DNA of 63,747 bases, the filler included, from Atractiella rhizophila (taxonomy: Eukaryota), in the NCBI GenBank assembly GCA_021432655.1. It is 3 parts of 3 records of this genome, joined end to end, with 100 filler letters (N's around TTAATTAATTAA, not from the genome) between each part and the next. Parts side by side here need not be neighbours in the genome. Positions count along the whole stretch, not along the records: positions 1 to 28,197 come from MU271735.1; positions 28,298 to 56,427 come from MU271736.1; positions 56,528 to 63,747 come from MU271809.1. One strand, 5' to 3'. The notes under the pieces were generated by a model that did not search any database, had not been told where the DNA came from, and worked only from the letters and a program-made list of their open reading frames with translations. Every line of letters begins with the position of its first letter. Position 1 is the first letter of the stretch. The translations under genes were made by a program, and so were the position numbers. This document shows positions 6,149-61,720 of the stretch, one piece after another.

Positions 6149-7257
6149 ACCCGCTACCTTATCCCGCGGATCGTACCTTCTAATCAATGGTGGCATTTTA
6201 ACCCTACGTACTCACCCTAGGAGCTGTAATTTGTGTCCGACTTGTAGCACGTTTCGTTTATTACAGGTCGAAGGTTTATGCGACTCAGATGAGAGGACGT
6301 TTCACCTCGAGTATTGCGACGCCTAGTGAGAACGCCACGACAGTTTGGGTTTAGATTTTCCTTCTGGTCGCATCGTAGAGTTATTTATTATGAGATACTT
6401 GAACAGATCTTTCGTTGATTTCGTGGGTTTAGATTTGCTTCTCGTCGCATTGTAGAGTTCTTTATGTGAGATACTTGAACAGATCTTTCGTCGATGCGTC
6501 TTAAGCACGCCAATATATCGAGTGTCCACTCTTGCGTCTTAAAAACTCGCTAATTTTAATCTCTCGGCAAGTGAGATTTAGTACCGTATACCCCAACTTT
6601 TTTCACCTCAATAGGACGTCGGAAAGGAGTACGTATGTCCGAGTAGTGTAGTCTCCTTTCCGTTCATCGTACTGGGTTCAGAGTTGAAACACGTCAGTTT
6701 TGTTTTGCATGAGATGAAGCTGGCGTAGGAAGGACGGTCATGGTGACTCGACCGCAGGTGATTCCGGCGACCGCTGGAACTCTCCAGAGCTTGACCTCGA
6801 TCTCGGTCACTATTGCGGTGGCAAGGAGAAGCGCCCATACCTTCTGCTCTCAGACGCTTAGCGCGGACGACTTCGGAACTTGCTGTAAAACCCTACCTCG
6901 TCGACCCCTACTCCGGCCCCTCCTCCACCTCGACATCTTTATCTTTTCCACCTTTTAAATACTCCGTCTTTCTGAGTCTTTTTGCTAGCTACAACCAGGA
7001 ACAAACTCAGGATTTGCGGCCAGCGCACTTTAGGTGGTTAAGTTAGGAATAGTGTCCGCCACTAAAGGAGAAAAGCTTAAAGATACTATGTCGAAAAGGC
7101 GGGTGTAGGCAGGCGGACGTTGGTTGTTTGTTTAACCTTGTTTGGTTGATGTTCAAGGTGACTGGTAAAGGAGACTAGAATATAGGAATATAGGGTTTTC
7201 TCGTACGTTCGTCGGTTCAAGGAGTTGTCGAGGCATATGCTGCAGAGAAGGAACTGT
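6149..7257. other. Mirror-reversed block 1 (left flank of the 25-N gap): transporter start, shared promoter, ILV2 exon 1 and intron 1 (copy A)
   Basis: Read right-to-left without complementing: ATG at 6887 gives MSFKASAGAIRRLSSSIPAKRNGG...DAVEVE, then intron GTACGT(6711)...CTAAT...TAG(6169), then RPIPSP. Confidence 0.93.
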
Positions 7258-8513
7258 NNNNNNNNNNNNNNNNNNNNNNNNNCAGGACGTAGCGCCACTG
7301 GTGTAAGCAGCGAGGTCCAGGTCTTCACTGCTCGTGTTGAGGTCCGAAAGGCGAACGAGATCGCATAGGGAGTCGGTATACTGGCCGAGGGACAAGTACT
7401 GCGCCCTCCTGTTTCAGTTTCACAAAGCTCAACATCTAGCGTAGCTTTTGGCCCTCCTACCGAGGTGGTCCCATCGGCTTCTAGACGAACTGCAGCACAG
7501 ATGCGTAGTAGAGCACCTTCTAAACCGGTGGACTATCGGGCTGCTTCCTTACCAGGTCTCCAAGCCGCGCAACCATCCGTGGGTACTTCTCCGTCGAGTT
7601 CGAGACTGCTTCCTCATCAGCCCCAGCCAGGACCACCTTGTCAACTTCCCTTGAAGACCTTCAACCCTCTACCTTATCCCGCCGGACCATAGTTTCTAAT
7701 CAATTCCGGCATTTTAACTTTACATACTCACCTTAGGAGCTGTAGCTAGTTTGTTCGACTTGTAGTACGTTTCGTTTATTACAGGACAAAGGTTTATGAG
7801 ACTCAGATGAGAGAACGTTTTAACCTCGAGTATCCGACGCCTAGTGAGTAACGCCACGACAGTTTGGGTTTAGATTTCCTTCTCGTCGCATTGTAGAGTT
7901 ATTTATGAGAAACTTGAACAGATCTTTCGTCGATGCGTCGTAAGCACGCCAATGTATCGAGTATCCACTCTTGCGTCTTACAAACACGCTAAATTTTAAT
8001 CTCTCGCCAAGGGAGATTTAGTACCGTACATCCCAACTTTTTTCACCTCAATAGGACGTCGGAAAGGAGTACGTATGTCCGAGTAGTGTAGTCTTCTTTC
8101 CTTTCATCACACTGGGTTCAGAGTTGAAACACGTCAGTTTTGTTTGCATGAGATGAAGCTGGCGTAGGAAGGACGGTCATGGTGACTCGACCGCGGGTGA
8201 TTCCGGCGACCGCTGGAACTCTCCAGAGCTTGACCTCGATCTCGGTCACTATTGCGGTGGCAAGGAGAAGCGACCCTACCTTCTGCTCTCAGACGCTTAG
8301 CGCGGACGACTTCGGAACTTGCTGTAAAACCCTACCTCGTCGACCCCTACTCCGGCCCCTCCTCCACCTCGGCATCTTTATCTTTTCCACCTTTTAAATA
8401 CTCCGTCTTTCTGAGTCTTTTTGCTAGCTACAACCAGGAACAAACTCAGGATTTGCGGCCAGCGCACTTTAGGTGGTTAAGTTAGGAATAGCGTTCGCCG
8501 CTAACGGAGAAAA
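6149..8513. repeat. Imperfect direct duplication, 6149-7074 vs 7664-8513 (same ILV2 5' locus assembled twice)
   Basis: Near-identical sequence on both sides of the gap, with substitutions concentrated in the intron; both copies decode to ILV2 exon 1. Confidence 0.88.
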
Positions 8514-8917
8514 CCATATGACAGAAAGGCTGAAAACCTCTTCAGCTGGTGGGGACGAGGATCAGCACAAAAGGGGTTGAAACAGCTTTCTCAATAGGAC
8601 AATGAATAGTGCAAAACATTACGCAAGACTGTAGGAAAACGTGTCCATGGAGAAGAGCTGTAATTAGTCGCAGATGTCACTCGATGCAGTACAATTGTTA
8701 TGGCAACTGATTACTTTCCACGGTCTATTCACCTACAAAAGTCGTCTAGTGATGTTGAAACCTATAGGTGAAAAGCAGTGTAGAAATGTATACAATTAAG
8801 TCAAGTAGGAGACGAGATAGTGGGAAAGATAGAAGAGGAGAGAGGCGGGTAGGTGGGCAGGTAGGGCGATACTAATAAACATTCGAAATTGATAGGGAAT
8901 CCGCAGCGAATGAGGAA
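7283..8917. other. Mirror-reversed block 2 (right flank of the 25-N gap): 5' part of ILV2 (copy B)
   Basis: Right-to-left reading gives [92 protein letters not shown]. It ends at 7283 and continues in frame with ALSDGTP at 8918. Confidence 0.97.
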
Positions 8918-10744
8918 GCGTTGTCGGATGGCACGCCGCTCGTTGTTTTCTGTGGACAGGTTGCGACGAGCAGCATTGGGAGCGATGCGTTCCAGGAGGC
9001 AGACGTGGTGGGAATCTCGAGAGCATGCACCAAGTGGAACGTCATGGTGAAAGACATCGCTGAGCTTCCACGGAGAATCAACGAAGCCTTTCACATCGCA
9101 ACCTCTGGAAGACCAGGACCTGTCCTCGTCGACCTCCCCAAAGACGTCACGGCCGGAACCCTCAAAGTCCCCATCCCTTCGAGGTTCACGGCGCCGGAAA
9201 TGATCAACGACTCGCTCCCATCCAACCCATTCGGTCGCTCGAATCCTCTCTCCCCTTCCTCCTCCTCCTTCCCTCCGCCCGATCCACAACTCATCACTCG
9301 AGCCGCAGCGCTCTGTGCCGTCGCTAAACGTCCAGTCATCTATGCTGGTCATGGCATCATGTGGTCACCTGGCGGACCGGCGCTCCTCAAGGAACTAAGC
9401 GATAAACTGAATGCGCCAGTGACGACCAGTCTGCATGGATTGGGAGGATTCGATGAACTCGACGAAAAGAAATCCCTTCATATGCTCGGAATGCATGGAA
9501 GTGGATACGCCAATATGGCGATGCAAGAAGCTGATTTGATCATTTGTCTGGGAGCAAGATTCGATGACAGAGTCACCGGAACACTTGACAGTACGTCCTC
9601 CTCTCTCTTCCCAGATCACCTTCTCCAGACTAACCTAATCATTGTGCGGGTAGAATTCGCACCTGCTGCTCGCGCTGCTGCGCTGGAGCGAAGAGGTGGT
9701 ATCATCCACTTTGAAATTCAACCGAAAAACATCAACAAAGTGGTGAATGCCACCGTCCCCATCGAAGGAGACCTCTCTCATAACCTAGGCTATCTCCTCC
9801 GCATGCTATCGAACACTCCTCCAGCTCGAGAAGAGTGGTTCAACAAGATCGCGCAATGGAAGAAAGATTTCCCTTGGTATTATGAGCCTTCGAAACCAGA
9901 GCAAGGAGAGTTCATGAAGCCTCAAGAGGTCATCGAGGAACTCGATGCTTGGTGCGAAGAGTATGGGAAGGAGAATTGCTTGATCGCTACTGGTGTGGGA
10001 CAACATCAGATGTGGGCCGCTCAGCATTATCGTTGGAGACATCCAAGGACTATGATCACCAGCGGTGGACTCGGAGTGCGTCCTTTGTATACCAATATCT
10101 AGAATGTGGCTGACATTGGTTAAAGACGATGGGCTATGGACTTCCAGCCTGCATCGGAGCCAAGGTGGCTGCACCGAACAAGGTCGTTGTAGATATCGAT
10201 GGAGACGCATCTTTCTCGATGACAGCGATGGAACTCGCCACCGCTGCACAGTATAACATTGGTATCAAGGTCCTTGTAATCAATAACGAGTTCCAGGTTC
10301 GTTTTCCCTGAACCGTTTCGCCTGCGGACAGAGCTAAGGGAGATATAGGGCATGGTCGTCCAATGGCAAGACCTCTTTTACGAGAATCGGTACTCGCATA
10401 CCACGATGAAGAACCCTGACTTCGTTTGTGCGTTTTCTGTCTACTTTGCCCTTGACGTTCGTTTGACGGGACAATGTAATCAGCTCTCGCAAAAGCCATG
10501 GGCGTTCATGCCATCCGCTGTGAATCGAAAGCAGACCTGCCTGCCAAGATGAAAGAGTTCATGGAGTATGATAACAACAAACCGATCCTCTTTGAAGCAC
10601 GAACCGTCAGAATCGAACATGTGTTTCCCATGGTAGCTGCCGGCAAAGCGTCAGTTTTTATTTCCTTTTCTCTTCCGTGTGCTGACGATGGGCTGTAACA
10701 GTCTCAATGAATTCATCATCCATCCCAACCTCCGGAAAAAGTGA
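8918..10744 (+). CDS. ILV2: Acetolactate synthase catalytic subunit, mitochondrial (normally oriented 3' portion)
   Basis: GQVATSSIGSDAFQEADVVG, GRPGPVLVDLPKD, MLGMHG, GARFDDRVTG, TGVGQHQMW, TPP motif DIDGDASFSM...NN; stop TGA at 10742-10744. Confidence 0.97.
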
Positions 10745-11102
10745 TTTTTGTTTCTCGGGTACTTTCTCATCTTCATCGTTCTCTGGAGGTCTGTTCTGCG
10801 GGTCTTTCTGATTACTCTTCTTCTTCCCCAAAACAAAAGGCAATGTCGCCCTCCGTCTTTGTACCAATGTTGGGTTAGGTTCGCATGTATGCTCTTGCCA
10901 TTAGTTGGAGTGCAAAAAAGCCTATCTGGCTTTATTCTTATTAGGTATCTCCTCCAGCAAAACATTCTGAAACCAGGAAAAGTAGTGTTAAGATAAGGAG
11001 CTGATGAGTTGTAAAGCGCAAGTGGAGAAAAAACCATCACACGTGACCGCATTTGCGGCAGACTTCCTAACGCGCTGACGACCAAAAACTTCTGAAAGAA
11101 AG

Positions 11103-12433
11103 ATGGCACACTGGGCAGGACGGTTAATGGGTGCGCTCCTCTCTTATTGCGTTGTCAGTCTAAGGCGATTTTGGTGAAAAGTTCCCACGGCGGTGGGCTT
11201 TGCGGCCCTCAGCTCTGCAATTTACGATGTACCTGGTGGACACCGGTTCGTTGACTTTTCGTATTACTAAGGGAGGAATGAAGGCTGACTTGGGCTGGCG
11301 GGATAGGGCGGTACTGTTTGACAGGTTTCAGGGAGTGAAGGATAAAGTACGCTCTGCTGTTCGACATAGGCATTGACCCAAGGTTGTGAGGGTAGCCTGT
11401 GAGCGAAGGAACGCACTTCCTCATCCCCTGGCTCCAAGTCCGTCCTTCCCTTTTCCACAAGAAGCTTCACCAAACCATTTTTCGTACAGCGTGCCATCCT
11501 GTATGATGTGCGCATCAAGCCGCGGAACATCTCCACGACCACCGGTTCGAAGGATTTACAGATGGTTTCCCTCACACTCCGTGTCATGAGTCGACCAAAC
11601 GTCTCTCAGTTGGCCTCCATCTACCGTAATTTGGGATTGGATTACGACGAGCGTGTGCTTCCCTCGATAGGAAACGAGGTGTTGAAGGCTACTGTTGCCC
11701 AATTTGATGCCAGCGAGCTTATTACGCTCCGCGAGGTCGTGAGCAGTAGGATCAGAGAGGACTTGTTGAAAAGGGCAGGGGAGTTTGGGATTGTGCTGGA
11801 TGATGTTTCAATTGTACGCACTTCCATTTGTTTTGGAAGATGAATTGGCTGAGGTGATGGTGGTGGGGAAGACTCACATGACTTTCGGCACGGAGTTCAC
11901 GCAAGCTGTAGAAGCGAAGCAGGTTGCCCAGCAAGGTGCGCCACTTCAGTTGCTACAAACTGACCATTCATTCTTGCGCAGAGGCGGAGCGTGCCAAGTT
12001 TGTTGTTGAGCGGGTAGGTGTCCACGCATTCCTGAGCTTTCTTCCGTTTCGCCGCTCTCTCAAACCGTTTGCTAACGTGTCGATTATGGTGGGAATTAGG
12101 CGGAACAAGAACGACAAGCTTCCGTCATCAAAGCTGAAGGTGAAGCCGAGGCAGCGACCATCATCTCGAAAGCCCTTGACCGAGTACGTTTTCCGCACCC
12201 TGCACCCTCAATCTCTCCCTCTCGCCCTTCTTTTTCGCCCTCTTCTCTTAAGGGTTGAATACTTGAATACCAATGACTGTTGGGGATAGGCCGGCGAAGG
12301 TCTTGTACAACTGCGACGGATTGATGCTGCGAAAGAGATTGCTCAGACGCTCAGCAAGAGTAAGAACGTCACGTACCTCCCCAGTGGACAAGGAGGAAAC
12401 GGTCTTCTCGTTTCCGTCCCTGCTGATCGATAA
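11103..12433 (+). CDS. PHB1: Prohibitin 1, multi-exon
   Basis: [77 protein letters not shown]. Confidence 0.95.
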
Positions 12434-12935
12434 AGAGGAGAGAAAAAAGGAACTGTTCAAGTTTACCACTTCGTTGCATTGCACCATTCTATTGTCCATC
12501 CAAACTGCTCGAAATAGTGAACAGTCCCATTTGGAAAGCTGTCCCCGTTGGTAATGCACGCCGACCTCACAAAGTGTCTTACCGTATCAGCAGTTCTCCG
12601 GGAGTATTATAGGTCACGAAATCCGATGGCATGCGAGTGGTGCCATATTGCTGCTGAGCAATCACTTCTCCTTTGCCAGTATAATTATAATAGTCCATCT
12701 TTCTTCGAAGTCGTCTACCGTCCAGCGCACTTGAGTCTGAAGCTGTAAGCAAGCGGAGCTGCTCTTGAGAGTAATCCCAAAATATCGGCATCCAATCGCC
12801 TGTGTTCTTTATCTCAGTTGGTGCAATCGCTTCGACGTCATTGGACGTCTCGCTAACCTCTCAAAAGGCAAGCTCTTTCTGATCTGTCACTCTAAGGGCA
12901 ATTCTCTGCTTTCAGCAACGCATCACCAAGAGTTT

Positions 12936-15719
12936 ATGCTCATCTTCAGGCACCTCAGCCGAACTGCCCTTTCCAAATCACCCACATCCCAAGCATCAAT
13001 CCTTCCTCAAAGTCATCACCTGTTCCAGAGGCTCCCATCCAACAACCTTAGTTACAGCTTCGGTTACAAAGCTCGAACTCTTTGTGTCACTGCCCCAGGA
13101 AGAATGTCACAACGCCAACACGTAGGGAAGGTCTCTGATCTCCAAGATGGGGAGATGTAGGTCATCTCGTTCAGATCCCACTTCACCAACTCTTCAGCCA
13201 GCTGCAGAAGCGTTTCTTGCTTAAATGCTCAGAGCCCTGATCTTGTTCTTTGTAAAGGAAATCAATTCCTTTCAATGGCGATGAAGAGAATCCTATCCTC
13301 CTCTCTAAGATAAAGGGAAGTTACTATGCGACAACCGCTAAGGTGCATGCCTTCCTTCATTTTACCCTCCCAACCTCTAGATCCGTACTAACATCGTAGG
13401 GTAAAGTGCACTCACTTTGGCGCTCCCCTCGTAAAAGGCGTTCTCGCTTGCTCTGGAACACTAGGTGCGTCTACCTCTTCTGTTTTCCAGCCTCGTGGAC
13501 TGACGATCCGACATGTAGTCTGTCCATGGCACGGCGCGAAATTCAATGTCTGTTCTGGTGACATTGAAGACGCACCAGGTGTCGGAAACCTGCACTCCTT
13601 CCGCGTTCGTGTTGCCTCCCTCTTAGCGTCCTATCCAGCTCGCTTACCCTTCTAAAGGTGGAGGTGTCCGGAGACGATGTTTACGTCCACGCAGACCCCA
13701 ACGTGGTAAAATCGAGAATTCGACAACCAAAGCTTCGCTCTTTGAGCAAAGGAGGCCACGGAGTAGTCATCATCGGCGCTGGTGCAGGAGGAGGTCATGC
13801 GATTGAAGGATTGAGAGAGGCGGGATACGAGGGCAAGATTACCATTATTGGACAGAAGGAGTGGCCCTCTATTGACAGGACGAAGATTTCGAAAGCTCTA
13901 ATTACCGATCCGGCAAAGATTATGCTGAGGAAGAACGATTTTCTGGAAGGCGAGTTAGGGGTTACGCTCAAGCTTGGAAAGGTTTGTTCTAGTTGTTGGT
14001 TCAAGGTCCCAAGAAAATATAATAATGACTTGTGCAGAAAGCAGATGCCATCGACTTTAAGTCGCAGGTGGTAAAAGTGGGAGGAGAGGAGGTCCCATAT
14101 GATAAGCTCATCGTCGCAACTGGAGGTACACCGAGGGTACGCATGCCATTCGATTCTGCCCCCCTTCTGAACTTGTTGTATGGTGAAATAGACCCTTCCT
14201 CTCCCCGGAGCTTCTCTCTCTAACATTCACGTCTTGCGCGACATCGACGACGCTGTTGCTATCACGAAGGGATTGCCAGCGGACGAGAAGGGGCCGAAGC
14301 CTAACTTGGTCATCGTCGTAAGATAACCTCAATCTCGCCTCGCTTCCCTTATTTAGTTGGAGCCCTGATCCTTGATTGATGACGGGCAGGGGAGCTCCTT
14401 CATCGGTATGGAGCTTGCAGTCGCTACGGCGCAGAAAGCAACTGTAAAGGTCATTGGCATGGAGAAAGCGCCATTTGAACGGGTTTGTCACCTTTATTAC
14501 ACCTCAATGATGAGGAACGAAATAATCTCTGCATAGATTTTGGGAGTTGAGGTCGGTAACGCGTTGAGAAAGGTACACTATTTTGGTGTTTTGGACTCAG
14601 TCCAGACAGAAGCTGATGGTTTTTTTTGTAGGTGCATGAAAGCAAAGGAACGAAATTCTTTATGGAAGCCGGCGTGGATAGGTTCGAAGCTAGTTTGTCC
14701 TTCACTCCTTTTCTATGAGCTGTACCCACTGAGTGGCACTATAGAACCGAACGACGCAACTAAAGTGGGAGCTGTCGTCCTAAAGTCAGGTGAAAAGATC
14801 GAGGCAGACATTGTCGTATTAGGTGTCGGAGTAGCGCCGGCAACTGAAGTGTTGAAGGCTTCTAGGACAAGTGGAGGCGACGGAATCAAGTTTCAGCAGG
14901 ACGGGAGTGTTGAAGTCAATGAGAAGCTGGAATTGGTGGGCGTGCAGAATGTATATGCGATTGGTATGTCGCTCTCCTTCCTTCCTTCCACTTCTCTAGG
15001 GGTTTCGAGGGCGATGGCTGATGCAAACGGAAAGGTGACATCGCGACATATCCTGATCCAGTCTCCGGCGAGTTGAATCGCATTGAGGTGTGTTCTTCCG
15101 CTGCATTAACGCTTTGAGCTTGAACTGGATGATGCAACAGCACTGGAATGTCGCCTCGAACATGGGACGCTGTGCAGCCTTCAACATCGCCAATCCCAGC
15201 GCGGGACAACGATTCGACAAAGTTCCGGTCTTCTGGTCAGCTCAAGGGCAGCAAGTCAGGTATGCCAACGGATCCAGTCTCGCGAAGAAGTTCGATGGAC
15301 TCTTTATCGACGGATCGCTTGTTAGTCCCCCTTTCGCTACCTCACACAGAAAGGATGACAAGTTGATTGCATTCTTTTTCGGCAAGGATGACATGAAATT
15401 CGCTGCTTGGTATACGAAAGGAGACGAAGTTGTTGCTCTCTGCACGGTTGGAAGGGATCCAATGGTGCGTTTGCAGCTTTATGACGGGGTATCAAGTAAA
15501 ATCTTCTCTAGGTATCCCAAGCGAGCGAGTTGTTCAAGTTGAGGAAGATGCCGAAAGCAAGCGAGGTTTGTATATTCCTCCATAATAACACGATCGCTAA
15601 TGTCTTCGCCTCATGTCCAGATCAAAAGCGGAAAGGCATGTGGTTCCTCTTTGATTGCTGATGCCATGAGACTAATACGATTGTTTCTACAGAATATAAT
15701 GGACATCAAACTGGAGTGA
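12936..15719 (+). CDS. AIF-like (AIFM3/Aif1-type) Rieske [2Fe-2S] plus FAD/NAD oxidoreductase, many short exons
   Basis: Rieske motifs CTHFGAPL and CPWHGAKF; VIIGAGAGG; IDRTKISKAL; YDKLIVATG; SFIGME; HWNVASNMGR; VPVFWSAQG. Confidence 0.92.
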
Positions 15720-15866
15720 AGTTCGTGAAGTTCAAGGAGAAAGTTGTCAAATTGTACTCAATAACAAACGCAATGCACAGGTTTTATCAACCTCGAATTC
15801 CGAAATGCTTCCTATTACATGACCAGTTATCCCCCGACTGCCGTAATGCGAAACCTGAGAGGAATA

Positions 15867-17224
15867 TTAAAGGCCAAGGTGTTGGTCAGAGTCCCCCAAC
15901 TCATGACCAAAACGATAATTGACTGTTCTTGCCTTCGTTTTGGAGGGAAAGAGGAGCTCGCCCTCTTCCTCTTTTGCTGCACCGATGAGAGCGAGGAGAG
16001 GGAGGGAAGGGGACTGGCTCCAGTCGAGAGAAAGTGCGAGAGTGGAGCGGGCATTGTTCGTGAAGTGGGTGATGAGGTTTGTAAGGTCTTGAGCTGGCGG
16101 AGTCTGCAGGGAGGGAGCGTTCCCGCTTGTCCCGATGAGGACAATACCTTGTGACCTATTGTTGGTTAGGAGAAGTCTTCAGCCTTGAGAGCAGAGTGAG
16201 GAACGAAGGACGAACCTGTATTGTGAAAGACATTCCCCCATCCGGAGGAGCGATTTAGGGTTGGTGTGAGGCGAGATAAAGGCATGGACTGTTGGAAGAT
16301 GGGGATGCTTTTTGTCATACGACAGAATATCCTCTATTGGCTTGGAACTGGATGCACGAGTGCCTTCAACGACATTTGTCAGACGTGGTTTAAACGGAAG
16401 AGAAAGCTGAAATGATCACTTTTGATGGTTGTGCTTGGGATGTTGCACTTTTGGAGCGTGTAGTAAACGTCTTCGGATTGCAAAGTGTTGGAGCCGAGAA
16501 CAGTTTCGTAGTTGCCTCCCCTGCAAACCAACGTTACCTCGCTGGGGTCGAGGAAAGGTGATGACGTACATCGCTGCAGAGTCCATCGCAACTTGAACAA
16601 CTTCTTGACCAGGGTTTGTACTACATCTCAACATTAATTGAGAACAAAATCGTTGCAGAAAAGACGCACTCCGCTAAATGGAGCGCAAGGATCCCATTCA
16701 GCCCATTCAAGCTACCAATCTCATCCCCAATCTTCTTCCAAGCAGCTTTATTCTCGTTCGACGGCACTTCCGCTTCCATCCACAAGTCACTTGCTTTCCC
16801 AAAAACCACAAAACGGAATGAAATGCTCACATGAGGTTATAAAATATAACGGCATCCGATGCTCCTTCTTCTGCGCCTCCTTTTTCGGACTTGTCAACAC
16901 CACCGCATCCTTCCCAAATATGGACTCCTCCTCTTTCTTCCCCACCCGTGGTGGTTTGATGGATACGAGCGAGTCGCCGCTTATGGCTGAGAGGGGATCA
17001 TGGTTTTCCACGATGGGGATTCTGTCCTGAAGACTTTCAAAGCCACACGGCGTCAGCACACCGTTTCTGTCATCTGGAACAGGACGAGGCACGCACCGTT
17101 TGGCAGCCAACCAAGTGGCGTCCTGTTTTGTGGTTCGTAGGGTAAATAGAGAGGGCAGGACAAAGGAGAGAGCTCCGAAGAGGAGACCAAGCAGGACGAG
17201 GCGTGAATCTATCCCAAATGCCAT
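15867..17224 (-). CDS. Hypothetical protein with N-terminal TM anchor and a distant LigB/DODA extradiol dioxygenase-like region
   Basis: Spliced ORF from MAFGIDSRLVLLGLLFGALSF to RMPLYFITS, then LPTVHAFISPHTNPKSLLRMGECLSQY|RSQGIVLIGTSG. The family call is a by-eye resemblance. Confidence 0.55.
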
Positions 17225-17449
17225 GGTCGTTTGGGAACAGGGAACAGAACATTGTGTGAAATCACGTGCTTCGCAACAACGCGTCGCGACGCCTTCGCTT
17301 CTGAGGAATAGGATTTTGGCGTAAGTTAGACGGTTCTTGGACCCAATCAGTATTGATCGATATTGCATTTCAGGCAGCTGATAACTCCCTGGACAGCTGG
17401 AAATGGACCGCCCCTAAGCCGCAAAAATGCGCGGTAATTGAAAGGAATT

Positions 17450-18630
17450 GGAAAGAACTCAACTCAATCTCCCTTTGTGCCTGTCAAACGACCCCCAGCG
17501 GCCGCCTTGTCACCAAAATCAGCACCTGAATCTGTCCAACTCTCAAAACGGGAGAGGTCGAGGAGAAAACACAGAGAGGGAAGCAAGTCTAGCGCGGTGC
17601 ATCCTAACTTCGAGGTGTAGGAGGCAGAGGCGGAGATGCGTGTCTAAAGCATCCTTGACATTGAGAGCTACGCGCGGTAGGTTGGAGTCTCGCTCCAGGG
17701 TGTGGAGGAGGGTTAGGAGAGAGAGGAGGCTTAAGCGGTCGGAGTTTATGAAGAGCTCCTCTATCTTTCGAGATAGCTTATCGCACAGCAGGAGGAGAGG
17801 GAGCGAGAGAAGCCGAAGTTTACCTTCGAGACCTCCATTGAGCCTGCCGTAGCAGAGCTCACACTTCAACTGCTTTGCGTGGTCTGCGAGCGCTGTCCGA
17901 TGCTCAACCCTGCACTCGAGCAGGTACATAACTCCTAAGAATACAGATCGTTACCTCTATCAGTAATTGCGCAGCGAGGTAGAGAAGTGTTCAAGCTATC
18001 AGAGGTGTAGGAAGGATATGGACTTGTCTATGGAAACTTGCTCGAGTACAACAAGGCTATCTACCCTCCTCTCCATCAGCTGTTATGACAAGTCTGCCTG
18101 CTTCCTAAGCTCGCGAAGGTGAGCGTGCTCCATCGCCATAGGGTTATACAGGAAGGCCAGCTTTCTCCGCCCAAGCCCCTCGCCTTTCTCCAGCAGCTTT
18201 AGGTACAGCTCCAACCACGCGCCTAGGAGTGTAAGAGGAAGGAGTCTGAGCATGACAAGGTGAAGGAAGGGGAAGGGTTACGAAGAGGACAACAACCAAA
18301 CTTACCACAGACTCAGGTATCGGGCTTATGAAGGTGAGCTTGAGGGCGAACTTAGACCTTTATCAAGCCAGAGTGGCACCTCTCTCTCTCTGGAGCTTTC
18401 CTGACCACCTACAGCTTGCTCCGAAACCAACCCCCTTTCGAGCGACGCATACGGTACAGCAGGTTCAACACGAGAGAAAAATCGGTGTTTGGTCTCTCAA
18501 GAGCTATGGGTTTTAACTACCAGCACCTTTACCGTGACGACCGGACTCTCCCTCCTTATGAACTTCGAAAATAGCAACCCCTCTAAACCAACCTGCTGGT
18601 TGCTAAACTGGGAGCGGAACTTGGGAAAGA
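17450..18630. other. Mirror-reversed block 3 (left flank of the 172-N gap) holding a ~300-aa hypothetical ORF; left edge approximate
   Basis: Right-to-left reading from ATG at 18319 stays open for about 290 codons (MDSDTIQTNNRRSIGKGKEVEQYESEEG...YRYLVRVEALESFVRLNSIVDYLSSHL...). Confidence 0.88.
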
Positions 18631-18802
18631 NNNNNNNNNNNNNNNNNNNNNNNNNNNNNNNNNNNNNNNNNNNNNNNNNNNNNNNNNNNNNNNNNNNNNN
18701 NNNNNNNNNNNNNNNNNNNNNNNNNNNNNNNNNNNNNNNNNNNNNNNNNNNNNNNNNNNNNNNNNNNNNNNNNNNNNNNNNNNNNNNNNNNNNNNNNNNN
18801 NN

Positions 18803-20315
18803 ATGCCCGCATACGACAGAACAGAAGACTTTGCCTCAACGTTCGACTACGGTAACCTACACCTTATCGTAATTCTTCGAGTAGTTCAAAACCCTCCGCA
18901 GTCGTTGTTGTTGTCCGAGTCGTCGTCGGTCTCTGTAGTCTCATATTCGGAGGTGCTGGCGGTGTGCTCATAGTCTCGAGCATAGGTGGAGGAGGTCCAG
19001 TTCCGCGAACCAGTGTACGGCTTCCTTTCGGTGGTGGCTTCCTGTCGATAGTTGGCTGTCCACGCGTACCACCTCGACGTCCCTGTCCTGTCGTCGGGGA
19101 AAGTTCCATGCGAAAAGAAAAGTAAGAGAATGACGACCCTTCACTTACACAAACACTAAACAAAACCTTCCAGTAAGCTGCGTACAACCCGGTCAAAGTG
19201 CTACGGAGTGGGCTCAGGTAGAGGTTCAGAAGGAGCATAATGTGGCCAGAAGCATTGCTTCGATAAGTGCTTAGAGTTGATTACAGAGTTACAAAGCTGC
19301 TACGCGTACGCCGTATACTCAGGCCACTACCTCGCTTCCGATTTCGCGAAGAGTCTTGTTCCAGTATTTGTAGTTCGCGCCGCTCTGCTTTAATTGTCGT
19401 CTCGAAGCCTGACCTATAAAGTGCTCTTGTTGTTCAGCAGTGGTGGACCTTGCTGTCTAGACGTACCGGAAAAGCAAGTCCTTCGTCACGTAATATGTCT
19501 CGACCGCCAATTCCTTCCCTTCCTCTTCCCGATGGGACTCTATGCTAACTAACAGCCATTCAGTTCAAGGAGGGAGGAAAGCCTAGGAGACTCGATTATT
19601 ACCGAAACATTTTGACGTCCGTTTCCGTAGGTGAGGGCGTTTAGTGCAGGTTTTCTAGTTTGGTCGGCACTACCTCGACTACGTTTTTCTCGCGAATGCA
19701 GGGATAGGTCTAGGAGTGTTACGCCCGCACCAGTAGCATGTTGAGCTGAGGCTGCGAGGTAGCTTGCTAAAGTGCACCCGCTCCCTGAACCTGTAACTGC
19801 CCGCCTTTAGCGCGCCAAGTTCTCCTGGTTTCGCCCTGCTACTCCTGACATGGTAGAGAACTAAGTAGTTAGCATTTCCAACTCATGGCGACTCAAAAAC
19901 TCGCTACGGAACCGCAGTCAAAACACTCAAATCAAGAACGGGAGAGGTGAGGTGAGGGGACCAAAGAAAAGCTCACGGAGCCATAAGACCTACAAACCAA
20001 GAGACTCAAAGCCACCATTACTACCTGCTATGCCCTCTAACAGTGAGAAAGAAATAAAGAAGCTAAGCCTGAACACAAAGACCAGAGAACCAAAGTACAA
20101 GGTTCAAGACATACCTTACGCGCGTATGTACCTTCTCGTAAAGAGCCAAGCAAGGAGAGATCAATGAAAGCCAATTACAACCGACTGACCATACTACTTC
20201 CTAATAAAACACAAGCAATAAGAAGCAACACAAGTATAGCAATATGTGATAGGTCTGGTCTGTTCTGGTCTGTTCTGTGTTTTGGTTAGTCTTAGGTTTA
20301 ATTAGTTTGGTTAGG
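18803..20315. other. Mirror-reversed block 4 (right flank of the 172-N gap); right edge at 20314 or 20317
   Basis: Complement-only reading shows canonical introns (GTATGC..TAG, GTACGC..AAG, GTAAGT..CTAAT..CAG) and a DUF1771/Smr protein. Confidence 0.93.
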
Positions 20316-20390
20316 AAGGCTTCTGGTAAGGACTCTTGGGACGTCGCCAGCTATCATGTGCTGTTTGTTTATCTGTTCGATGTTGACCAT
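18803..20390 (-). CDS. DUF1771 + Smr domain protein (Ypl199c-like). Starts at 20390 on the minus strand; the rest is the complement of 18803-19862
   Basis: MVNIEQINKQHMIAGDVPRVLTRS joins LRA|IKKLIK; LRNEAIHESQLMSQCFDDAHAAYESGDGAKAK; DLHGLFVQEA; IVG|KGIHS; HNAGVVIV; ends DDEDCTIS*. A few single-base indels are present. Confidence 0.88.
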
Positions 20391-22345
20391 CCTGCCGTCG
20401 TTGGCTACGTGTGCGAAAGAAGGACAGCTCGGCGGGTGTGGAGCAGAAGGTGAGGTCGTGGTTTGGAGACGGGAACAAAAGAATAAAGTCGGACCAGAAC
20501 CAGAGAGCGACCAGATCGCAAACCAAGCGATCGCTAGCTTTCTACTCCCTCTTCTTAAATAGCAGCCAATAAATAGTGCTCGGCCAGCAGTAGGACTCTC
20601 GTGAGCTGGATGGGAAAAATTCCAGCTGGAGAGACACGTGTGATTGCATTTGGCTCAAATTCGCTTACGTAGGGCTGGAAAACGTGGAGGAGCGGGGCTG
20701 TTGACGCACGGAAGTCTTAAGAGGCAAGGAAGTAAGCATGCTCATGTCACGATAATGTTCAGATAGGTCGTAGTGATGAGGGAAGAGAGAGCGAGGTTTC
20801 CTTGAGTATTTGCTCATTCCTCAAGATTAAGTCCTCCCTTCCAGAAAAATCCTACTTCTTAGCAGTTAAGCTGGCTGAGGACCTTTAATCGGTCACTTTA
20901 CTTCTAGAGCTGGGGGAAGTCCAGCTTATCTGGTCGGTATTCTCGCGACCTGCCGTTTAGCAAAGATTGGGAAGGAAAGGAAGTGGATGTAGCAACTTTC
21001 CACTTGATTCTCGCTTTTACCACCCTTCCATCTCATTTCTTTCACCCATGCGTGAATTGTATGTTCCCCAAGTCCGGAAACTGGTTAGGTGTGGCTATCC
21101 TTTATGTCGCCTCTTTGACTTTCCAAAAACCTCTTTACATCTGTTCATCATCTTTCCCCGAATAATCAAAGTCATCTGTATAACTGGCGCCTCAAGCTCT
21201 GGTATTTTTGCACTCAAGGTATTCGATCTATGAGATCAAAGCGGTTCTTGGTTCGCCGTCATGAAGTATTTGATCGATTGGATCAGGGGTTCTTTGAAAC
21301 TCAGCGTGGGCAGAGAATTACATTCCATCTGGTACCGAGGCTCATGAACAGTTCCCTTTAGCCAGGTTTATTTCTGGTCTCTCTCTCCCTCATCTGACTC
21401 CAAGTTATCGTATGGCCCAAAAAAAAGTTATCGAGCAAAGTATGGTGCTTGCTTTGATACGTCGATTGTGGTTTGTAAAACGTCTCCATTTCGGACCAGC
21501 ATCTATCCATTTTCACACATACTGGACTGAGCAAGCTTATTACATCTTGCCTATGCGGTGAACGTTGACGGCTTTCGTCTAATCAACCAAATCAGGAATT
21601 AAGGAGATTACATGCGCCTTCTGCGAGTGGAGAGTCCCTACAGAAGGTGGAATCACCAGATAGAGGAGAATTTGGGTGACAGGGACCGAGATAGATGGAC
21701 TCAAGACGTACCATTTGACAATGCAGATCAGCTATGTGCAATAGCAAGCAACTATCCCTATTACATCATAACGACATTGAACTCTCGGTGGAAAGTAATG
21801 GAGTAGTTAGTGCCCGCTCATCAAGGAAGAAATCAAGAGAAGAGAACCATAGCTACTAGACACGAGGCATCATTCTTCTTCCAGAAACTATGCAAAGTCG
21901 ACTGTCAGCATTCAGGCACACCTGAGGCGGCCTCCGGTGTACGATTTGATGCTTCTCCCCAAATCCCAACCAAATTGGAGAAATCACCCCGGAAATCAGA
22001 TATAAGCCCTTGCTTCGGCAGATTGCGACAATAACCCGAGCTGAATATGATTCATGATTGCGCTGGTCAAAGGTTCGCTCCATGAACCCGGTCAGACTTC
22101 TGGCTCTGGGATAAATGTAGAATTCTGAGAGTGGAGTTATAACCCGAACATATCGGGTCACTCAACAACTCGGTAAATTCCTTGTGCGATCACAGCTTAC
22201 ATAGTTCAGTAGCGTTGTGGAGAGTAGACGAACGGAGGAAAATTGATAGATCATGAGACGACCTTAATTGCATGGCATAACGAAATCGAAACAACAGAAT
22301 CTGCATATCTCCTCCTGGCTCAGCTAATCTCTCCCACGACTTCGT

Positions 22346-37283: not shown

Positions 37284-39783
37284 TTAACCGTGAGGATGAT
37301 GAAAAGGTAATGGTAGAGGCCTCTGAATGCTAGGTTGAGGAGGTAAACCGTGAGGCGTCGGTGGCCCTGCATATCCCTGGAAATGAGAGGTCGGTTGGGC
37401 AGGAGGAGGGGACATCATCCCTTGATGATAATCTGGGAACGACTGCTGCTGAAACTGTTGAGGAGGGGGATAGGAGTGTTGATGATGTGGAGTAGGAGTA
37501 GGGGAAGGTTGAGGAGGGCCATAGGAAGGGTTATGTCCTTGAGGTGGGTGAAAAGGTTGATTGTGCTGCTGCTGTTGTTGAGGCGGAGGAGGAGGAAAGG
37601 ATTGGAACATCTGTTGATTCTGTATCGGAGATTGACGTGGGTAATAGGGTTGTTGTCCAGGCCCAGGAGTTGGAGTTGAGGGAGGAGGGATGAACGGAGC
37701 AGGCGTGGATGAGGGCAGATACGGTTGCTGGAACTGAGACGGATGTGGTGGCGGCCCAGGAGGACCAGTTGCAAACTGCGACGGTTGAGGCGGTGGTCCG
37801 TTCGCGAATTGGGGAGGCTGTGGAGGAGCAGGTCCGTTAGAGAACTGATGTAGAGGAGGTCCATTCACGAATTGGCTCAGCTGTGGAGGCGGTGGCGGAC
37901 CATTGGCGAACTGTCCCTGCTGAGGAGGGGCACCATTGGCGAATTGTCCGGGCTGAGGAGGGGGACCATTGGTAAATTGTCCGGGCTGAGGAGGAGGGCC
38001 GTTGGGGAAGTGTGACTGGTAAGGCTGCATTTGCGGTGTGGACGAAACGGATGGATGTTGGGCGAAGGTCGAAGGTGGAGGTGCATTGCCGTGTGCATTC
38101 CATCCCCCTCCTCCATCATCTTGATGCTGAGGAGGTAGAGGAGGAGGAGGTCCAGCCCATCCACTGTCTTGATGATGAGGGGGTGGACCTCCAGTTTGCG
38201 GCTGGAAGTGCGGCTGAGTGTGCATCATTGAACCGTGCTGTTGATGTCCATGTGCAAACGGTACTGGCGTCTGTGACGGCGCCGGCGCCGGCGCGAAGGG
38301 AGGAGGAGTTGGAGCATAGCCTTGAGCCGGAGGGGGGGTAGGGGCATAGTTCTGCAGATGATGAGGGGGACCAGGTGGTGGGAATCCTTGGGGTTGAGAA
38401 GGTGGAGGAGCACCCCATGGTTGTGCCTGTGGCATGACCTGAGAATATGCAGGATCGGGGAGCGGCCTTCCTGTTGTCCCAGGACGTTGAGACATATCGT
38501 TCCCTGCATACGCATTGAGGGAATCAACAGAATGGGAATGTGACAACGGCCCCCCTGGATGTGGATTCGGATGCCCACCGTACTGTTGCTGCATTTGTTG
38601 GTGAGCGGGAGGAGGGGTCGGTTGAGGAGTGCTCATTCGGTGTATAGGATAGGGATGCGGAGATGGAGCTTGTGCTTGAGGCGGTGAAGGTTGAGGTTGG
38701 GCATGCCAACCATTTTGCAAGGTCTGCGGGAGGGAGGTTGGAACGCTATTCTGCTTCGTTGGTGCCGGAGGAGGGAGCGGTTTATCAAGGCTCAAGGCTG
38801 ACAATGGCCTTGTCAGGATGGACGAGATATCGGCAGGATGAGAAGAGGAAGAGGAGCGACGGGGCGGTAGTGTAGGTTTGCCGCCACCTGCATTAAGTGG
38901 CGTCGGCAGCGCTCCCAAGTGAGCTGACATACGCCGGTTCCCCCCCGCTCCAGCAGAACCACCACCGGGAAAGAGAGACGGAGGAGGAGGGAGCGGTTGG
39001 TCCTGCTGGACTACAGGAGCGTTGGACCATCGTGGACGGAGAGAACTTGGGACATCGGCACTCGTACGGTGTGGACTGGAGGATTTGGACGGCGCTGGTA
39101 CCTTTGCGGGATTAAGAGGTTGCCATTGACCCTGTCGTCCCGATCCTACTCCAACAGTTGAACTGGGCGAAGGAGACGGCGTGGCCTTCTTGTGTGAAGG
39201 TGGAGGTTCCGCGTTCGAATAGAATGTCATCTCCATGTAAACCTCTCCACAAGGCTTCCCCTTATTCTTGATCGGCACCCAATCATCGAATTCTCCCTTC
39301 TTTAAAGTGGGTCCGATATCCAATGTTCCTTCTCCAATCAAGTCAGGATCGCGCGTGTCGTCGGCATAGCAGGCGATCTTGAGCAATCGATTGTTCCTTT
39401 CCTTCCTCAGCTCCTCTCCACTCTTTCTCTCCTTCGTCCCAATCTCTGAAACAGACGACGTGTTCCCCACGCCTCCTTTCCCATTGATTGATACCCCACC
39501 CTCTTCGAAAGCCTCTTCCAGATCCTCCCAAATGTCGAACCGAAACTCCTCATCCCACACAGGGTGCTGTCCTCCTCGTTTGTCTACTTTCGTCTTTTTG
39601 GATATTGAGCCGTAGGAAAGTTGACAGTAGGGATCTTGTTTTCCGATCTTTTGCTTGTTGGGGAGATTGCGCTATTCCAATCCCAATTGCTGTCAAAACA
39701 CTACTGTGGCAGTTGGAGAGAGGGAAGAGACGAACAGCTTTGATAGGTATGACCACGATCGTTCCTAGCATTTTAGGCGCCAT
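37284..39783 (-). CDS. C2-domain cytokinesis/ingression protein (Inn1/Fic1-like) with a long Pro/Gln-rich tail
   Basis: LGTIVVIPIKA, NLPNKQKIGKQDPYC, KTKVDKRGGQHPVWDEEFRF, GEVYMEMTFYSN, followed by a PXXP-rich region. Confidence 0.85.
37730..38003 (-). repeat. Coding minisatellite: about 8 degenerate ~33-nt units (NGPPPQPGQF[AT])
   Basis: Repeating units are visible in both the translation and the DNA (aattgtccgggctgaggag...). Confidence 0.8.
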
Positions 39784-56427: not shown

Positions 56428-56527
56428 NNNNNNNNNNNNNNNNNNNNNNNNNNNNNNNNNNNNNNNNNNNNTTAATTAATTAANNNNNNNNNNNNNNNNN
56501 NNNNNNNNNNNNNNNNNNNNNNNNNNN
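56428..56527. other. Artificial scaffold-joining spacer (44 N + TTAATTAATTAA + 44 N)
   Basis: Same 100-nt structure as at 28198. Confidence 0.95.
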
Positions 56528-56886
56528 GTGGCGCCAGAATACACGTCGAGAAGCTCCACAGTCCGTTATTACCTGTCTATCTGTAAATCAACTAGAGGAA
56601 TGTGGACGAACCTCGATGACATTTGGATGTTTTAGCTCCTGGAGGAACTTAACCTCCCGAATGGCTGACATGTCCAATCCATCTTTGAACTGTCCAAGCT
56701 TAATCTTTTTGATCGCAACGTCCCGTCCCGTGGATAGTTGCTTAGCTGTCGCGGTTTCTCAGAAAGAGTGTTTGGTAAGATGGGAAATGGACCTTGGTGG
56801 ACTACAGCATAGGTACCTTCTCCTAGCTTCCGGATCTTCGTGTAGTTGTTAGAGATCCGTTCATTCGCTGCTTCAGCTGCCTCCAT
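56528..56886 (-). CDS. KIN28: CDK7/Kin28 kinase, 5' portion, truncated at the scaffold end
   Basis: YTKIRKLGEGTYAVV, VAIKKIKLGQFKDGLDMSAIREVKFLQELKHPNVIE|LLDVY. Confidence 0.92.
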
Positions 56887-56889
56887 GTC

Positions 56890-57870
56890 CACTTAGAGTC
56901 TCGACGGAAGGGAATGAACAAAGTGTAACCGTACTAGAGAAAACTAACCGGATAGTGACCAGTCTTCGATGGCGCATAATACACGCCAACCTCATGTCGA
57001 AGTACATTATCCTTTAGAGACATACCAAGCACAGAAGAAACCGTGAAGAAACCTAGAACGCAGAGAAGGCATGGAGCGGAAGGAATGTAGATTACTGAGA
57101 GGATGACGACGGGGAAGCTAGTCGCTGCTGGTAACCGTTTTGCTTAGAGGCGACGCGACTACCTTCCTTCCTTTACGTGCCTTCGATATTTTTTTTGCGA
57201 AAAAGAATAGAGACCATTATCTAAGCTCTTCCACACTAACAAAGCTTTTTGCCTTCAATTGTTTTCATTCCGATATTTTGGTGCGTAATGCTCAATTTTG
57301 CTGCTATATATCCATATGTCTGTTGGAGAATAGCGCTTCAGTATGCCACGCATTAGCTAACATCGCCTACGTCCAGAGAGCGCACTCCGAGTGACGAGCG
57401 CACTCCCTCCCGCAGCCACAGAAGGATACGTGTTTGAGTACAAATTCAGTGTACGGTGAGCCGGTTTCAGGAGGCCACTTTCAGTCTGCCAACGGATCGG
57501 TGGCACCGTAGGCTGTCGTACGTCCTCGGATGTGGTATTTCGATGCGACTCAAGCTGGTATGTTAGCTGACTAGTTCGTGGGCTGTGGGCAGAAGCACTG
57601 TCCAACTCTCCGGTCTGGCCAAATTGTTCTTCAACTAGACACTTTAGCTTTCGCCAGCCTCTCGCCTCGTTTGACAGGTTGTAGGGTTCAATTCAAGGCG
57701 ACGACTGGGTGCTCCCCATCAGGTCCGTTGGGACGGGTTGCTGCAGCAAGGTACTGGGAACATATCACCTAATTTTCAACATCTGATGTTCTAAAGTTAC
57801 GTCTACGGGAGTCCTTGTCCACGTTAACCGACTCATACCATGCTCTTTGGATCGTTTGGAGTTTAAGGAC
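56890..57870. other. Probable mirror-reversed block 5 (left flank of the 254-N gap); no gene recognised; left edge approximate
   Basis: Qualitative only. It has the TAG/CTA/ACG-rich texture of the other blocks; TATAAAA motifs appear only in the complement (~57185, ~57273); its position matches the other blocks. Confidence 0.6.
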
Positions 57871-58124
57871 NNNNNNNNNNNNNNNNNNNNNNNNNNNNNN
57901 NNNNNNNNNNNNNNNNNNNNNNNNNNNNNNNNNNNNNNNNNNNNNNNNNNNNNNNNNNNNNNNNNNNNNNNNNNNNNNNNNNNNNNNNNNNNNNNNNNNN
58001 NNNNNNNNNNNNNNNNNNNNNNNNNNNNNNNNNNNNNNNNNNNNNNNNNNNNNNNNNNNNNNNNNNNNNNNNNNNNNNNNNNNNNNNNNNNNNNNNNNNN
58101 NNNNNNNNNNNNNNNNNNNNNNNN

Positions 58125-59114
58125 ATAGAAAGTGAGGCGTAGGACTTAACGATAAACGAAAGCGGACAAGGGCAAGAATCTCCAGTATGTAGTTCCTTTC
58201 TTTTTATGTGCGTAGCGTTAACCAAACTTCGTGCCAGGGTCAAGGGCGGTAACCGCAAAACTCTCACGTAGGATTCGACGGACAGTCATGGGATTAGTGT
58301 TTCTTCGATAACAAGATGGTCGTCTTCATACGTCACAACGGACTAAACGTCGGACTAACACTTGGGGAAGCTTGTGTAGCTAGAGTGGCGGTCAGCCGGT
58401 AACAAAGCTCGGAGGAAAGTAGGATAACCTTGCAATCGAGCTTTTCAACAGCGTAATTCATTCCACTAAGTGGTTTTACTCCCGGTTTGTCGATTATATC
58501 TATATAATTATGTCTCGAGTCATATTTTATTTAGTTGGGTGGTGTTGGTTTCCCTTGTACGGAAATTTTTGTTACAGAATCACGGTAAAGAAAACACACG
58601 TTCAAGTTGCATGGTTCGCAAGTACTGGTGGTCCCTAGGGTGAAATTTGCTGAAAAGCGACTAGTTTGCTTAGCTTAAGGAGAAGTGCAACATGGGCTCC
58701 AACGATAGACTTAGTTGGCACTACTACCGCACCAAGACACCTAACTAGTGACGTTCCGGGTCTAAACGACGAACTCACGCTAACGGCTATATCAACTGTT
58801 CGGACAAAAGAGGAAATCACGCAGGACTGCTTTGACTAAATAGAATGGGGACACCATAGCAATCTTTTAGATTTAGCTCAAGTTTTCGCCCATGAACGCA
58901 CTCAACCGAGTAGCGGACACATTCTGAGCTTATGGGTCGGCAGTTTTTTCAAGAAGGGGACATACTAGGTGATATGAGTCAAGGAACGAAACTGAAGGTG
59001 ATTAACTGAATGTAATATCCACCATATAAGAACCTGGTAGCATATTCCTGCTAACAGGTTCCGTAATGTGCAAAATTTTCGTTTTATTTCCTTGTCTCGT
59101 TGCGGTCAGAAGTA
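58125..59114. CDS. GH16 glucanase paralog B, 5' half (mirror-written, with signal peptide)
   Basis: ATG at 59114 read leftwards: MKTGVALFLYFAFKTCNALDNRPYTMVQEYTTYN|GKNFFDGWVF, EPTHGLVNY, HVPFGCAVWPSFW, WPTGGEIDVFEG. TATATATA lies upstream at ~59175. Confidence 0.93.
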
Positions 59115-59960
59115 TAGAGCATGACAGGAAGATTGACTATGAACCTTACTTTCGAAAGTAGCGCAGGATCATATATATAGTCGGGACCCTTCCAACTTTA
59201 CCTTTAGTATGAGCACCACTCCACTCAATCACTAGAAGCTCGAAAATCACTAGAAGCTCGAAAAGGCACTGGCGACTCGCAGTCTAACCTGTCCTTTAAG
59301 GCTGACCTTGTGAAAAGTAGGTCATACGAACACACGTAGGCGCCGCTTTGCGATTTCATCGCACTGCTACTTCGTTCCTTAAGGGAGAAGTGTTTCGGGA
59401 CTATCATGCTACTAGTTAAGACGACGTTCAGTTAAGAAGCTCTTCCTTCATTGCTTTTGACTGCATGGTATTGGAGGTGAGAAGCGGATCAATATAACTT
59501 GGCAGAGAGGATATCATTACCGGACGGCCGCACTGTAAGGGAAGTGCAGAGAGGGACAAGCAGCGTATCAAAGTGTCATAACACTACCATCCATAGCCAT
59601 ACGAAGCTCGCCAAAGTTGCTTTTAGTCATAAAAGGTCTTAGACCGCTGCGGCAATCTTATCTATAACCTTGGTACGTATGCATTGTCGCTCTCCTTCCA
59701 TACTTTGGCCTCGACCTTTCATTCCCCAACGAAGAACTCCCTCCAAGAGCTTCCACAACTCGTTTAGTACTTCTCTCCCGCTTATCGCCCGACGCCTGGA
59801 ATCTCACCTCCGTCCTTACCTCCTATGCCCGCTATAACAGTCGTCCCTGCCATGTTCATTACCATGCTAGTCGTTTGTGTACGTCAAAAGACGGAGTTCA
59901 GAACTCAAGCAGTAAAGTAAAGATGGTTGAAACGATACGATGGTATCTCAGCAAGGAGAG

Positions 59961-61720
59961 GATGACTTTGTGGGACTGGGTGACTTAGAGGGTCATCCGT
60001 AAGACGTTTCAGTTTAAGTTCAATCAAGATCAGTGAAGTTATAGCTCTCGTACATGGAACTTCAACGAAGGGCAGGAGTGCTTTAGAAATGTCAGCAATG
60101 GACAACGCGTAAGCCAGGTGAACCCATACTCCTCTTCTACTGTTACTTCTGCGTGGTGTGGGTAGAACAACTTTACATAACGGGCGGGTTAGTGGTGTGT
60201 CAAGCTATAACTAGTGCTAAAAAACTAAAAACTTCGCGCAGCGAAGCAAAGGTAACGTTCCCAAGCGTATAGAACGATACCCTCACGGATCTAAGCGGCC
60301 TAACCCCCACTATAACGACCTTTGTTCGAGCCGCCCCTAAACCAGGGAGATAAATCTGAAGTGCTACTCATATTAAACTCTCTTCTACGCACGTATGTCC
60401 TTTCACGGACGTGGTCTTAGTGTAGTCAAGTGAGTAAAGACCATTTGTTCTGTCAGTAAATGGTCATCATATGCGGTCAACACAGTTTATTGTGTCGGAA
60501 GTCTGCACCTAGTCTGAACAAGGATTTGTTAGCTTCTCCTGAATGGGTCTGCGGGGGGACTTTGCAGGCTGCGACCAAACGGCATCAATGACCGTGACCA
60601 CAGAGGCTGGACTTCGCTCCATAATCTTATAACCGAAACTTTCCTCTAAGCGATTGGACTGTTGGATTTAAGACTAACAATCGGGGTCCTCTAAGTGTCA
60701 ACTCCAAAGAGCCGATGTGGGTGTGAAGTTATTGACGTTTCGCGACACACCTCACGAATGGCAGGGTCACCGTAAGTATCCACAGGAGCTCTCTCTTACA
60801 GTTACTACGAAGTCCTAAAGTTTCCTGTATGAAGTCTGACGTAGGGCGCGAGCATACGTCTCGTTAGACTAAAACAACAGGTAACAACCGAGGACGAGGC
60901 ATAAGGTAGAAATTCAGCGTATTGAAAGTGAGGTTATACGCCGACTGGAAGTTATTATAGTTAGAGAGGATGTGGCGACTATTCATGGTAAATGTCCGCC
61001 TCCCCTTACGAGCATGGTAGAACGCCGGTACACGGCCAAGGGTGCCAGGTCTTACGTCCGGACTGGGAACACAGTTGTTTCCTTGACCGTACTTTTGTTT
61101 CCGATATGGTTCATCGCGTAGGTATTCCGTCTACGGTTCGCAACTAGTGATCGAAGGAACATTCGTTAACGGCTTTTGTTGCCACGTGTTCAGTGGATAG
61201 TTTCTAGGTTGAACCTTGACAGGTCACTTACTCAGTTGGTAGAGAAGCAAAACCCCGTTCTACTTTTCTCTGGGTGCCAAGAAAACCACGACTAGAAGTG
61301 TCTCAAAGAGAACCAAGGTATCCGTTCTAACGACGATCTTAGGCCCCACTCTTAGTCCACTAAGAAGTACGTGCGGTACCAAGAGAAAGTTATTCTCGGA
61401 GTGAGACTTGACTCCTACTTGACTGGACTCCTAACTACTGACGTTCGGGAACGCTAACTCGGCAACGGAACAGCTGTATCAAGTGGACATGCTGCATTCG
61501 CGGTAGCAGTTATTACGGCCCAATTCCACGCCTGGTTCTGCAGTCTGCATGGTACGGTAAACATTTTAGAACGACTTTTCGCAGCGCGTAATTACTTCGA
61601 ATCTATACAAACATAAGTGAATGTCAGAGTTTTAAGGTCGACCTTTTCGCAGTCGCCAACCTTCATCTACCCCTTTCGGAATGAAGCGGTTGGTTAGGCG
61701 CGGTAACAAGCGGCACGAAA
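59961..61720. CDS. GH16 fungal Lam16A-like glucanase, paralog A (mirror-written; 5' end missing)
   Basis: Read 61720 to 59961: DWLAN|WNFET|QDFTNGM|VNYVDKATAQSQGL, RNSVKIS, HLPYGCATW|PAFW, catalytic EIDIIE, LHTSAGC, NIELCGDWAG, NAYWEIQWVRVFQ*. Confidence 0.93.

Follow-up and report, generated by a model that had tools for sequence, protein, structure and literature searches.

Five blocks of reversed, uncomplemented sequence flank assembly gaps in a 63.7-kb window of Atractiella rhizophila

Flank extension by long-read gap fillers, biological inversion and the splitting of haplotypes at heterozygous indels are the closest known counterparts of the feature described here, namely blocks of mirror-written sequence (letter order reversed, not complemented) beside the gaps in a stretch of DNA from Atractiella rhizophila. 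The window, i.e. the whole stretch that was analysed, comprises 63,747 nt of one strand, and its genes are fungal. In excerpts of the published accounts, flank extension is described for the gap filler PBJelly, as are ‘overfilled’ gaps (PMC3504050; PMC9635638), for which a gap is defined by a minimum length of 25 N (PMC3504050). A biological inversion makes the ends of a segment swap places, as is seen in the blocks. However, an inverted segment is complemented and keeps its 5'→3' polarity, whereas the blocks are uncomplemented and are absent, as written, from the contigs of public sequencing runs. Haplotype splitting, in turn, resembles the situation at the first gap, where one haplotype is without 1.14 kb; it accounts for the gap but not for the backwards writing.

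Five blocks (A, B, C, D and F; 8,989 nt in total) were confirmed as reversed in letter order without complementing. Each of them touches a plain N gap, and nothing with a comparable composition score occurs elsewhere in the window. The earlier note on this DNA had claimed six such blocks; the claim held for these five and was not confirmed for a sixth, block E (56890-57870). The gaps and the confirmed blocks are the following, the role of each block being that assigned to it in the proposed origin.

6149-7257: block A, left-flank extension into gap 1; border exact
7258-7282: gap 1, 25 plain N
7283-8917: block B, right-flank extension at gap 1; border exact
17548-18630: block C, left-flank extension into gap 2; border from loose ends
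18631-18802: gap 2, 172 plain N
18803-20368: block D, right-flank extension at gap 2; border from loose ends
57871-58124: gap 3, 254 plain N
58125 to about 61720: block F, right-flank extension at gap 3; right border good to about ±15 nt

The blocks are set apart cleanly by a 5-mer reversal score. A strand-symmetric 5-mer model was trained on the unsuspected parts of the window, each 2-kb chunk being left out in turn, and the score of a position was log P(word) - log P(word reversed). For bins of 250 nt, the mean was +18.5 (standard deviation 12.8) in 209 normal ones, of which 4.8% lay below zero, and -14.3 in 39 from the suspect regions (the region of block E included), of which 87% lay below zero. 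Summed log-likelihood ratios (LLR) amounted to -68.7 for block A, -91.1 for B, -66.4 for C, -149.0 for D and -257.1 for F. Per kilobase, the five blocks thus lie between -56 and -95 and five normal stretches between +67 and +85, and excursions within the roughly 52 kb of normal sequence went no lower than -27.5. The difference is not explained by G+C content.

Complementing in place and reversal in place are alike in k-mer signature and in open frames, so that composition alone cannot separate the two, and the letters at the junctions are needed for the purpose. These were read from four public runs (X1-X4) that contain the normal stretch 9000-17000 and whose contigs were aligned to 4500-21000; X1 and X2 represent one sample, which is possibly the source of the assembly. 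Many single-letter differences occur in the run contigs, which fits a sample with two haplotypes. The informative points are loose ends, where a run contig stops matching the window and continues with other letters. Behind 6148, the X1 and X2 contigs continue with window 7257→7228 read backwards (30/30 letters); behind 17548, with 18629→... read backwards (29/29 compared letters); and before 20369, they carry 18832→18803 (30/30 letters), and a spliced X4 contig has the last 6 letters before 20369 in common. One base at the border of block C is ambiguous, both 17548 and 18630 being A. These matches place the borders at 6148/6149, 17547/17548 and 20368/20369, and therefore replace those placed near 17450 and 20315 by the earlier note with 17548 and 20368. 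They also show in-place reversal rather than in-place complementing: the letters behind 6148 (7257, 7256...) and before 20369 (18832→18803) are uncomplemented, and residue 192 of the ILV2 protein described below ends at 7283, whereas its residue 189 starts at 8906. The junction data already refute complementing for A, B, C and D, and this alternative is accordingly very improbable. Depth was zero in all four runs in the bins 6153-8907 and 17724-19927; missing cover proves nothing and was not used.

The same contigs bear on the notion that the mirror order is real DNA of the organism. No point in its favour was found. Normal letter order, which is the reversed order of the blocks, runs across the junctions at 6148, 17548 and 20369 in the run contigs, and only reversal gives intact genes. 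The relation expected of a biological inversion is likewise missing, the blocks being reverse only and not reverse-complemented. As the earlier note had remarked, mirror text is beyond what polymerases make, and we know of no polymerase or recombinase for which strand polarity would not forbid it. The idea can be set aside with a confidence close to certainty.

Gene content points in the same direction. After reversal, open frames lengthen across the junctions, at ILV2 from 407 to 530 aa (stop to stop), in the other cases from 136 to 396 aa and from 118 to 283 aa, though the length of the open reading frame (ORF) is decisive by itself for block C only (360 aa vs 134 aa). At gap 1 lies the acetolactate synthase gene ILV2, the normally written part of which is given below.

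8918-10741, + strand: ILV2, normally written part, residues ~189-709, from Pfam and from tblastn with P0001

The frame at 8879-10099 (+) is an acetolactate synthase with the Pfam domain TPP_enzyme_M (5.1e-32), and TPP_enzyme_C is likewise present in the normal part; the best relative is P0001, a protein named acetolactate synthase of Atractiella rhizophila. Introns at 9590-9654 and 10075-10126 are seen in RNA-like contigs. As written, the window matches P0001 from residue 189 on only (8906-10741), and residues 1-192 find no match. In the letter-reversed window, the latter lie on block B at 97-100% identity: residues 1-59 on 8326→8150 (100%), residues 60-94 on 7682→7578 and residues 93-192 on 7582→7283 (100%). 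Residues 1-59 are also found at 100% on 6887→6711 in block A, where a copy of the first ILV2 exon lies at 6519-6695 (+) once the block is reversed in place. With the blocks reversed in place, a single alignment of residues 93-557 spans 8917/8918; its only two mismatches are far from the junction, one being an intron edge and the other a real difference, V467M (at 9803, between the ILV2 of the window and the public protein). The assignment to ILV2 is carried by the TPP-enzyme domains together with collinearity to P0001, of which residues 1-192 lie on reversed B and residues 189-709 on the normal sequence.

The two blocks at gap 1 further hold two versions of one region. In true order, block B starts at 8913→8536 with a backwards, uncomplemented copy of 4814-5191 (97.1%, 379 nt), skips about 1.14 kb, continues with copies of A and ends in ILV2. 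The similarity of the two blocks is 95.7% over 652 nt between 6424-7074 in A and 7865-8513 in B (24 mismatches, 4 gap positions), and 86.7% over 278 nt between 6149-6419 and 7664-7934 (14 gap positions). An X1/X2 contig departs from the window at 5187 with exactly the letters that come next in B (8538→...), which makes the shorter form a genuine second haplotype; both forms of the indel are present in the run contigs, as given by the loose ends at 5187 and 6148. The heterozygous indel of ~1.14 kb, present in the haplotype of the scaffold, consists of 5192-6148 and, in true order, the first 183 nt of A. Gap 1 was probably caused by this indel; since A and B overlap, it is no real gap despite its 25 N. 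The long-read-type indels that the earlier note had seen in the blocks were not borne out: all checkable frames are intact, and the differences between A and B are mostly substitutions, which fit two haplotypes.

At gap 2, reversal of block C opens a frame of 396 aa from 17442 across 17548 (+), to which no family name could be given. Reversal of block D produces a minus-strand gene that crosses 20368/20369 with a frame of 283 aa (19806-20654), after which an Smr-like domain follows in the frame 19577-19888. A profile of our own build from 20 bacterial Smr domains matches the mirrored frame 19594→19283 with an E value of 8.9e-4, over profile positions 2-39 only, and nothing as written. The mirrored frame contains DLHGL, and the motif DLHG is typical of Smr. 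On its sequence, an Smr gene in block D is plausible; comparison of window 20301-20654 (-) with longer proteins gave no match.

At gap 3, 13 of the 14 bins of 250 nt in block F are negative, with a change point at 61735. Once reversed, the block has two tandem GH16-like paralogs on the + strand. Two motifs of the GH16 catalytic type ExDxxE, EIDIIE and EIDVFE, then stand on one strand, neither being present as written. The first gene (corrected 58372-59800) is collinear at the protein level with the second, which extends from corrected 61062 across 61720/61721 to exons in normal writing within 61721-62314. These exons are:

61774-61812, + strand: normal exon, second GH16-like gene
61870-61944, + strand: normal exon, second GH16-like gene (84%, 25 aa)
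62110-62139, + strand: normal exon, second GH16-like gene
62264-62314, + strand: normal exon, second GH16-like gene

The match between reversed F and its normal right flank has a summed E value of 2.8e-18, against 0.002 at best as written. For the right border of the block, support comes from the change point (61735) and from the in-frame alignment that crosses 61720. A GH16 profile, again of our own build (20 bacterial GH16 domains), found one mirrored exon of 45 aa with an E value of 8.1e-4, the best match as written being 6.7; thinner profiles from 5, 4 and 2 sequences gave best E values of 0.064, none and 0.011, respectively. Nothing matched in a phmmer search for GH16 with two bacterial proteins, window 61685-61906 (+) had no match among longer proteins, and a codon-usage score did not tell the frames right of 61720 apart.

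Much of what the earlier note had expected from reversal was thus recovered: ILV2 at 97-100% identity, the Smr-like domain, the GH16-like genes and the longer frames all appear, and the start of ILV2, the GH16-like genes and the Smr-like domain are legible in reversed order only, so that real genes are indeed hidden. Frame restoration was found for ILV2 at 8917/8918 and for the GH16-like gene across 61720. A ‘transporter’ at 6148 is not supported: the ORFs of the normal side are without a Pfam match, and the frames are rich in Ser or in Glu/Arg and not membrane-like. Canonical introns, which had been read as a further signal, do not discriminate: in normal sequence, the pattern GT..CTRAY..YAG was counted 28 times as written and 38 times reversed.

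Block E, which had been assigned on composition and position, is not confirmed as mirror-written. Its LLR of +1.7 over 981 nt falls outside both the normal distribution of scores (minimum 13.8) and the mirrored one (maximum -26.4). The right part (57251-57870, 620 nt) scores +22.5, a value reached by 0 of 120 mirrored windows, and looks normally written. The left part (56890-57250, 361 nt) scores -20.8; the fair scan statistic is -26.9 for a segment that begins inside a verified kinase exon, and chance excursions in normal sequence (-27.5 and -25.6) are on a par with it. As written, block E has no Pfam match, and internal homology was absent in either reading direction. Metagenome scans with one 25-mer from block E and one from the adjoining kinase exon returned 0 stretches.

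As to origin, the five blocks are almost certainly an assembly artefact, a half-done reverse complement of gap-flank extensions. During work on the three scaffold gaps, each contig end would have been extended into its gap, and the letters of the extension would then have been written in reverse order but left uncomplemented, which is half of a reverse complement. The base of each block that belongs beside the contig therefore stands beside the Ns, and reversal in place restores the true order; this much is shown, the run contigs at three junctions lacking the blocks as written. At gap 1, which lies at the heterozygous 1.14-kb indel, the overlapping extensions come from different haplotypes and were never merged, with 25 N left between them; the merge of A and B probably failed because of the haplotype difference. 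The fault would lie with a gap filler for long reads that works by flank extension. The artefact explanation of the earlier note is upheld by the position of the blocks against the gaps, by the reversed order in the run contigs and by the overlap of A and B. The likeness to PBJelly consists in both contig ends being extended into a gap that stays open, as its account describes in the excerpts consulted here (PMC3504050), and in the additions at gap 1 (1109 + 1635 nt), which exceed the gap and are unmerged, the residual 25 N equalling the minimum gap. It ends with the additions at gap 1, which do overlap (95.7%, 652 nt), and with the reversed, uncomplemented letters, which are absent from the description of the program in those excerpts (PMC3504050).

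A different culprit would be a reversal introduced after assembly, through file processing (for example, of stretches marked by letter case) or deliberate alteration as a test, in which case the gap filler would be innocent. The window has been post-processed. It is made of three scaffolds strung together by spacers with stops in all six frames, the third scaffold starting at 56528, and the spacers are as follows.

28198-28297: scaffold join, spacer of 100 nt (44 N + TTAATTAATTAA + 44 N)
56428-56527: scaffold join, spacer of 100 nt (44 N + TTAATTAATTAA + 44 N)

Such artificial TTAATTAATTAA linkers mean that a later step could be responsible, and a correct full-length ILV2 of the species does exist in the public protein collection. 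That protein, P0001, nevertheless differs from the window (V467M) and is recorded on a contig of 42,954 nt, so it may represent the other haplotype or another assembly. Moreover, the blocks behave as gap extensions, each filling the space between a contig end and the Ns, with A overlapping B and B belonging to the other haplotype, and a later processing step would have needed knowledge of the block borders. Reversal after assembly is for these reasons an unlikely, though not negligible, source of the blocks.

Besides the linkers, several points weigh against an origin in gap filling or qualify its support. The junction 8917/8918 is absent among the loose ends listed, its support being the protein alignment. 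X1 and X2, if they are the source sample, test the text against its data and not against another isolate. Block F rests on internal homology and composition. PBJelly is presumed here to leave 25 N where a gap is overfilled. Furthermore, no reversal error is described in the excerpts of the PBJelly accounts (PMC3504050; PMC9635638), and phrase searches brought up no published assembly error of the reversed-but-not-complemented kind among the titles and the beginnings of abstracts of the papers listed. These points notwithstanding, an assembly artefact in the gap-flank extensions remains by far the best account of the five blocks.

Some other features of the window were observed alongside. A kinase gene (56591-56887, -) is truncated where the third scaffold begins. 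A tandem direct repeat (24878-26007 and 26007-27136; 1130 nt, 98.3% identity, no gaps) is covered by two long minus-strand frames of 438 and 393 aa, neither of which has a Pfam family. At 15565-15691, RNA-like contigs of X3 and X4 have 13 other letters in place of 125 nt, with ends GT..AC; the replacement may be an allele or another local assembly error. Finally, an open frame of 795 aa at 37287-39671 (-) has a C2 domain at its start (5.8e-12), and GC skew on the + strand is strong around it (+0.31 to +0.37).

The mirror blocks are no biological feature, and the weight of the finding is for data quality. About 9 kb of the 63.7 kb cannot be read as written, and they hide the first 188 residues of the essential enzyme ILV2, two GH16-like genes, an Smr-like gene and a frame of 396 aa. 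Gene callers, orthology tables and training sets for machine learning would mistake such blocks for novel DNA or for DNA without genes. Reversal in place is called for in all five (8,989 nt), and the 5-mer reversal score is applicable to whole assemblies. It is conceivable, at somewhat less than an even chance, that the same error is systematic, every unclosed gap extension in this assembly and in other public assemblies from the same pipeline version being backwards. If so, genes beside gaps would have been silently destroyed and spurious ‘orphan’ sequence created, and a simple k-mer reversal test would detect all such blocks.

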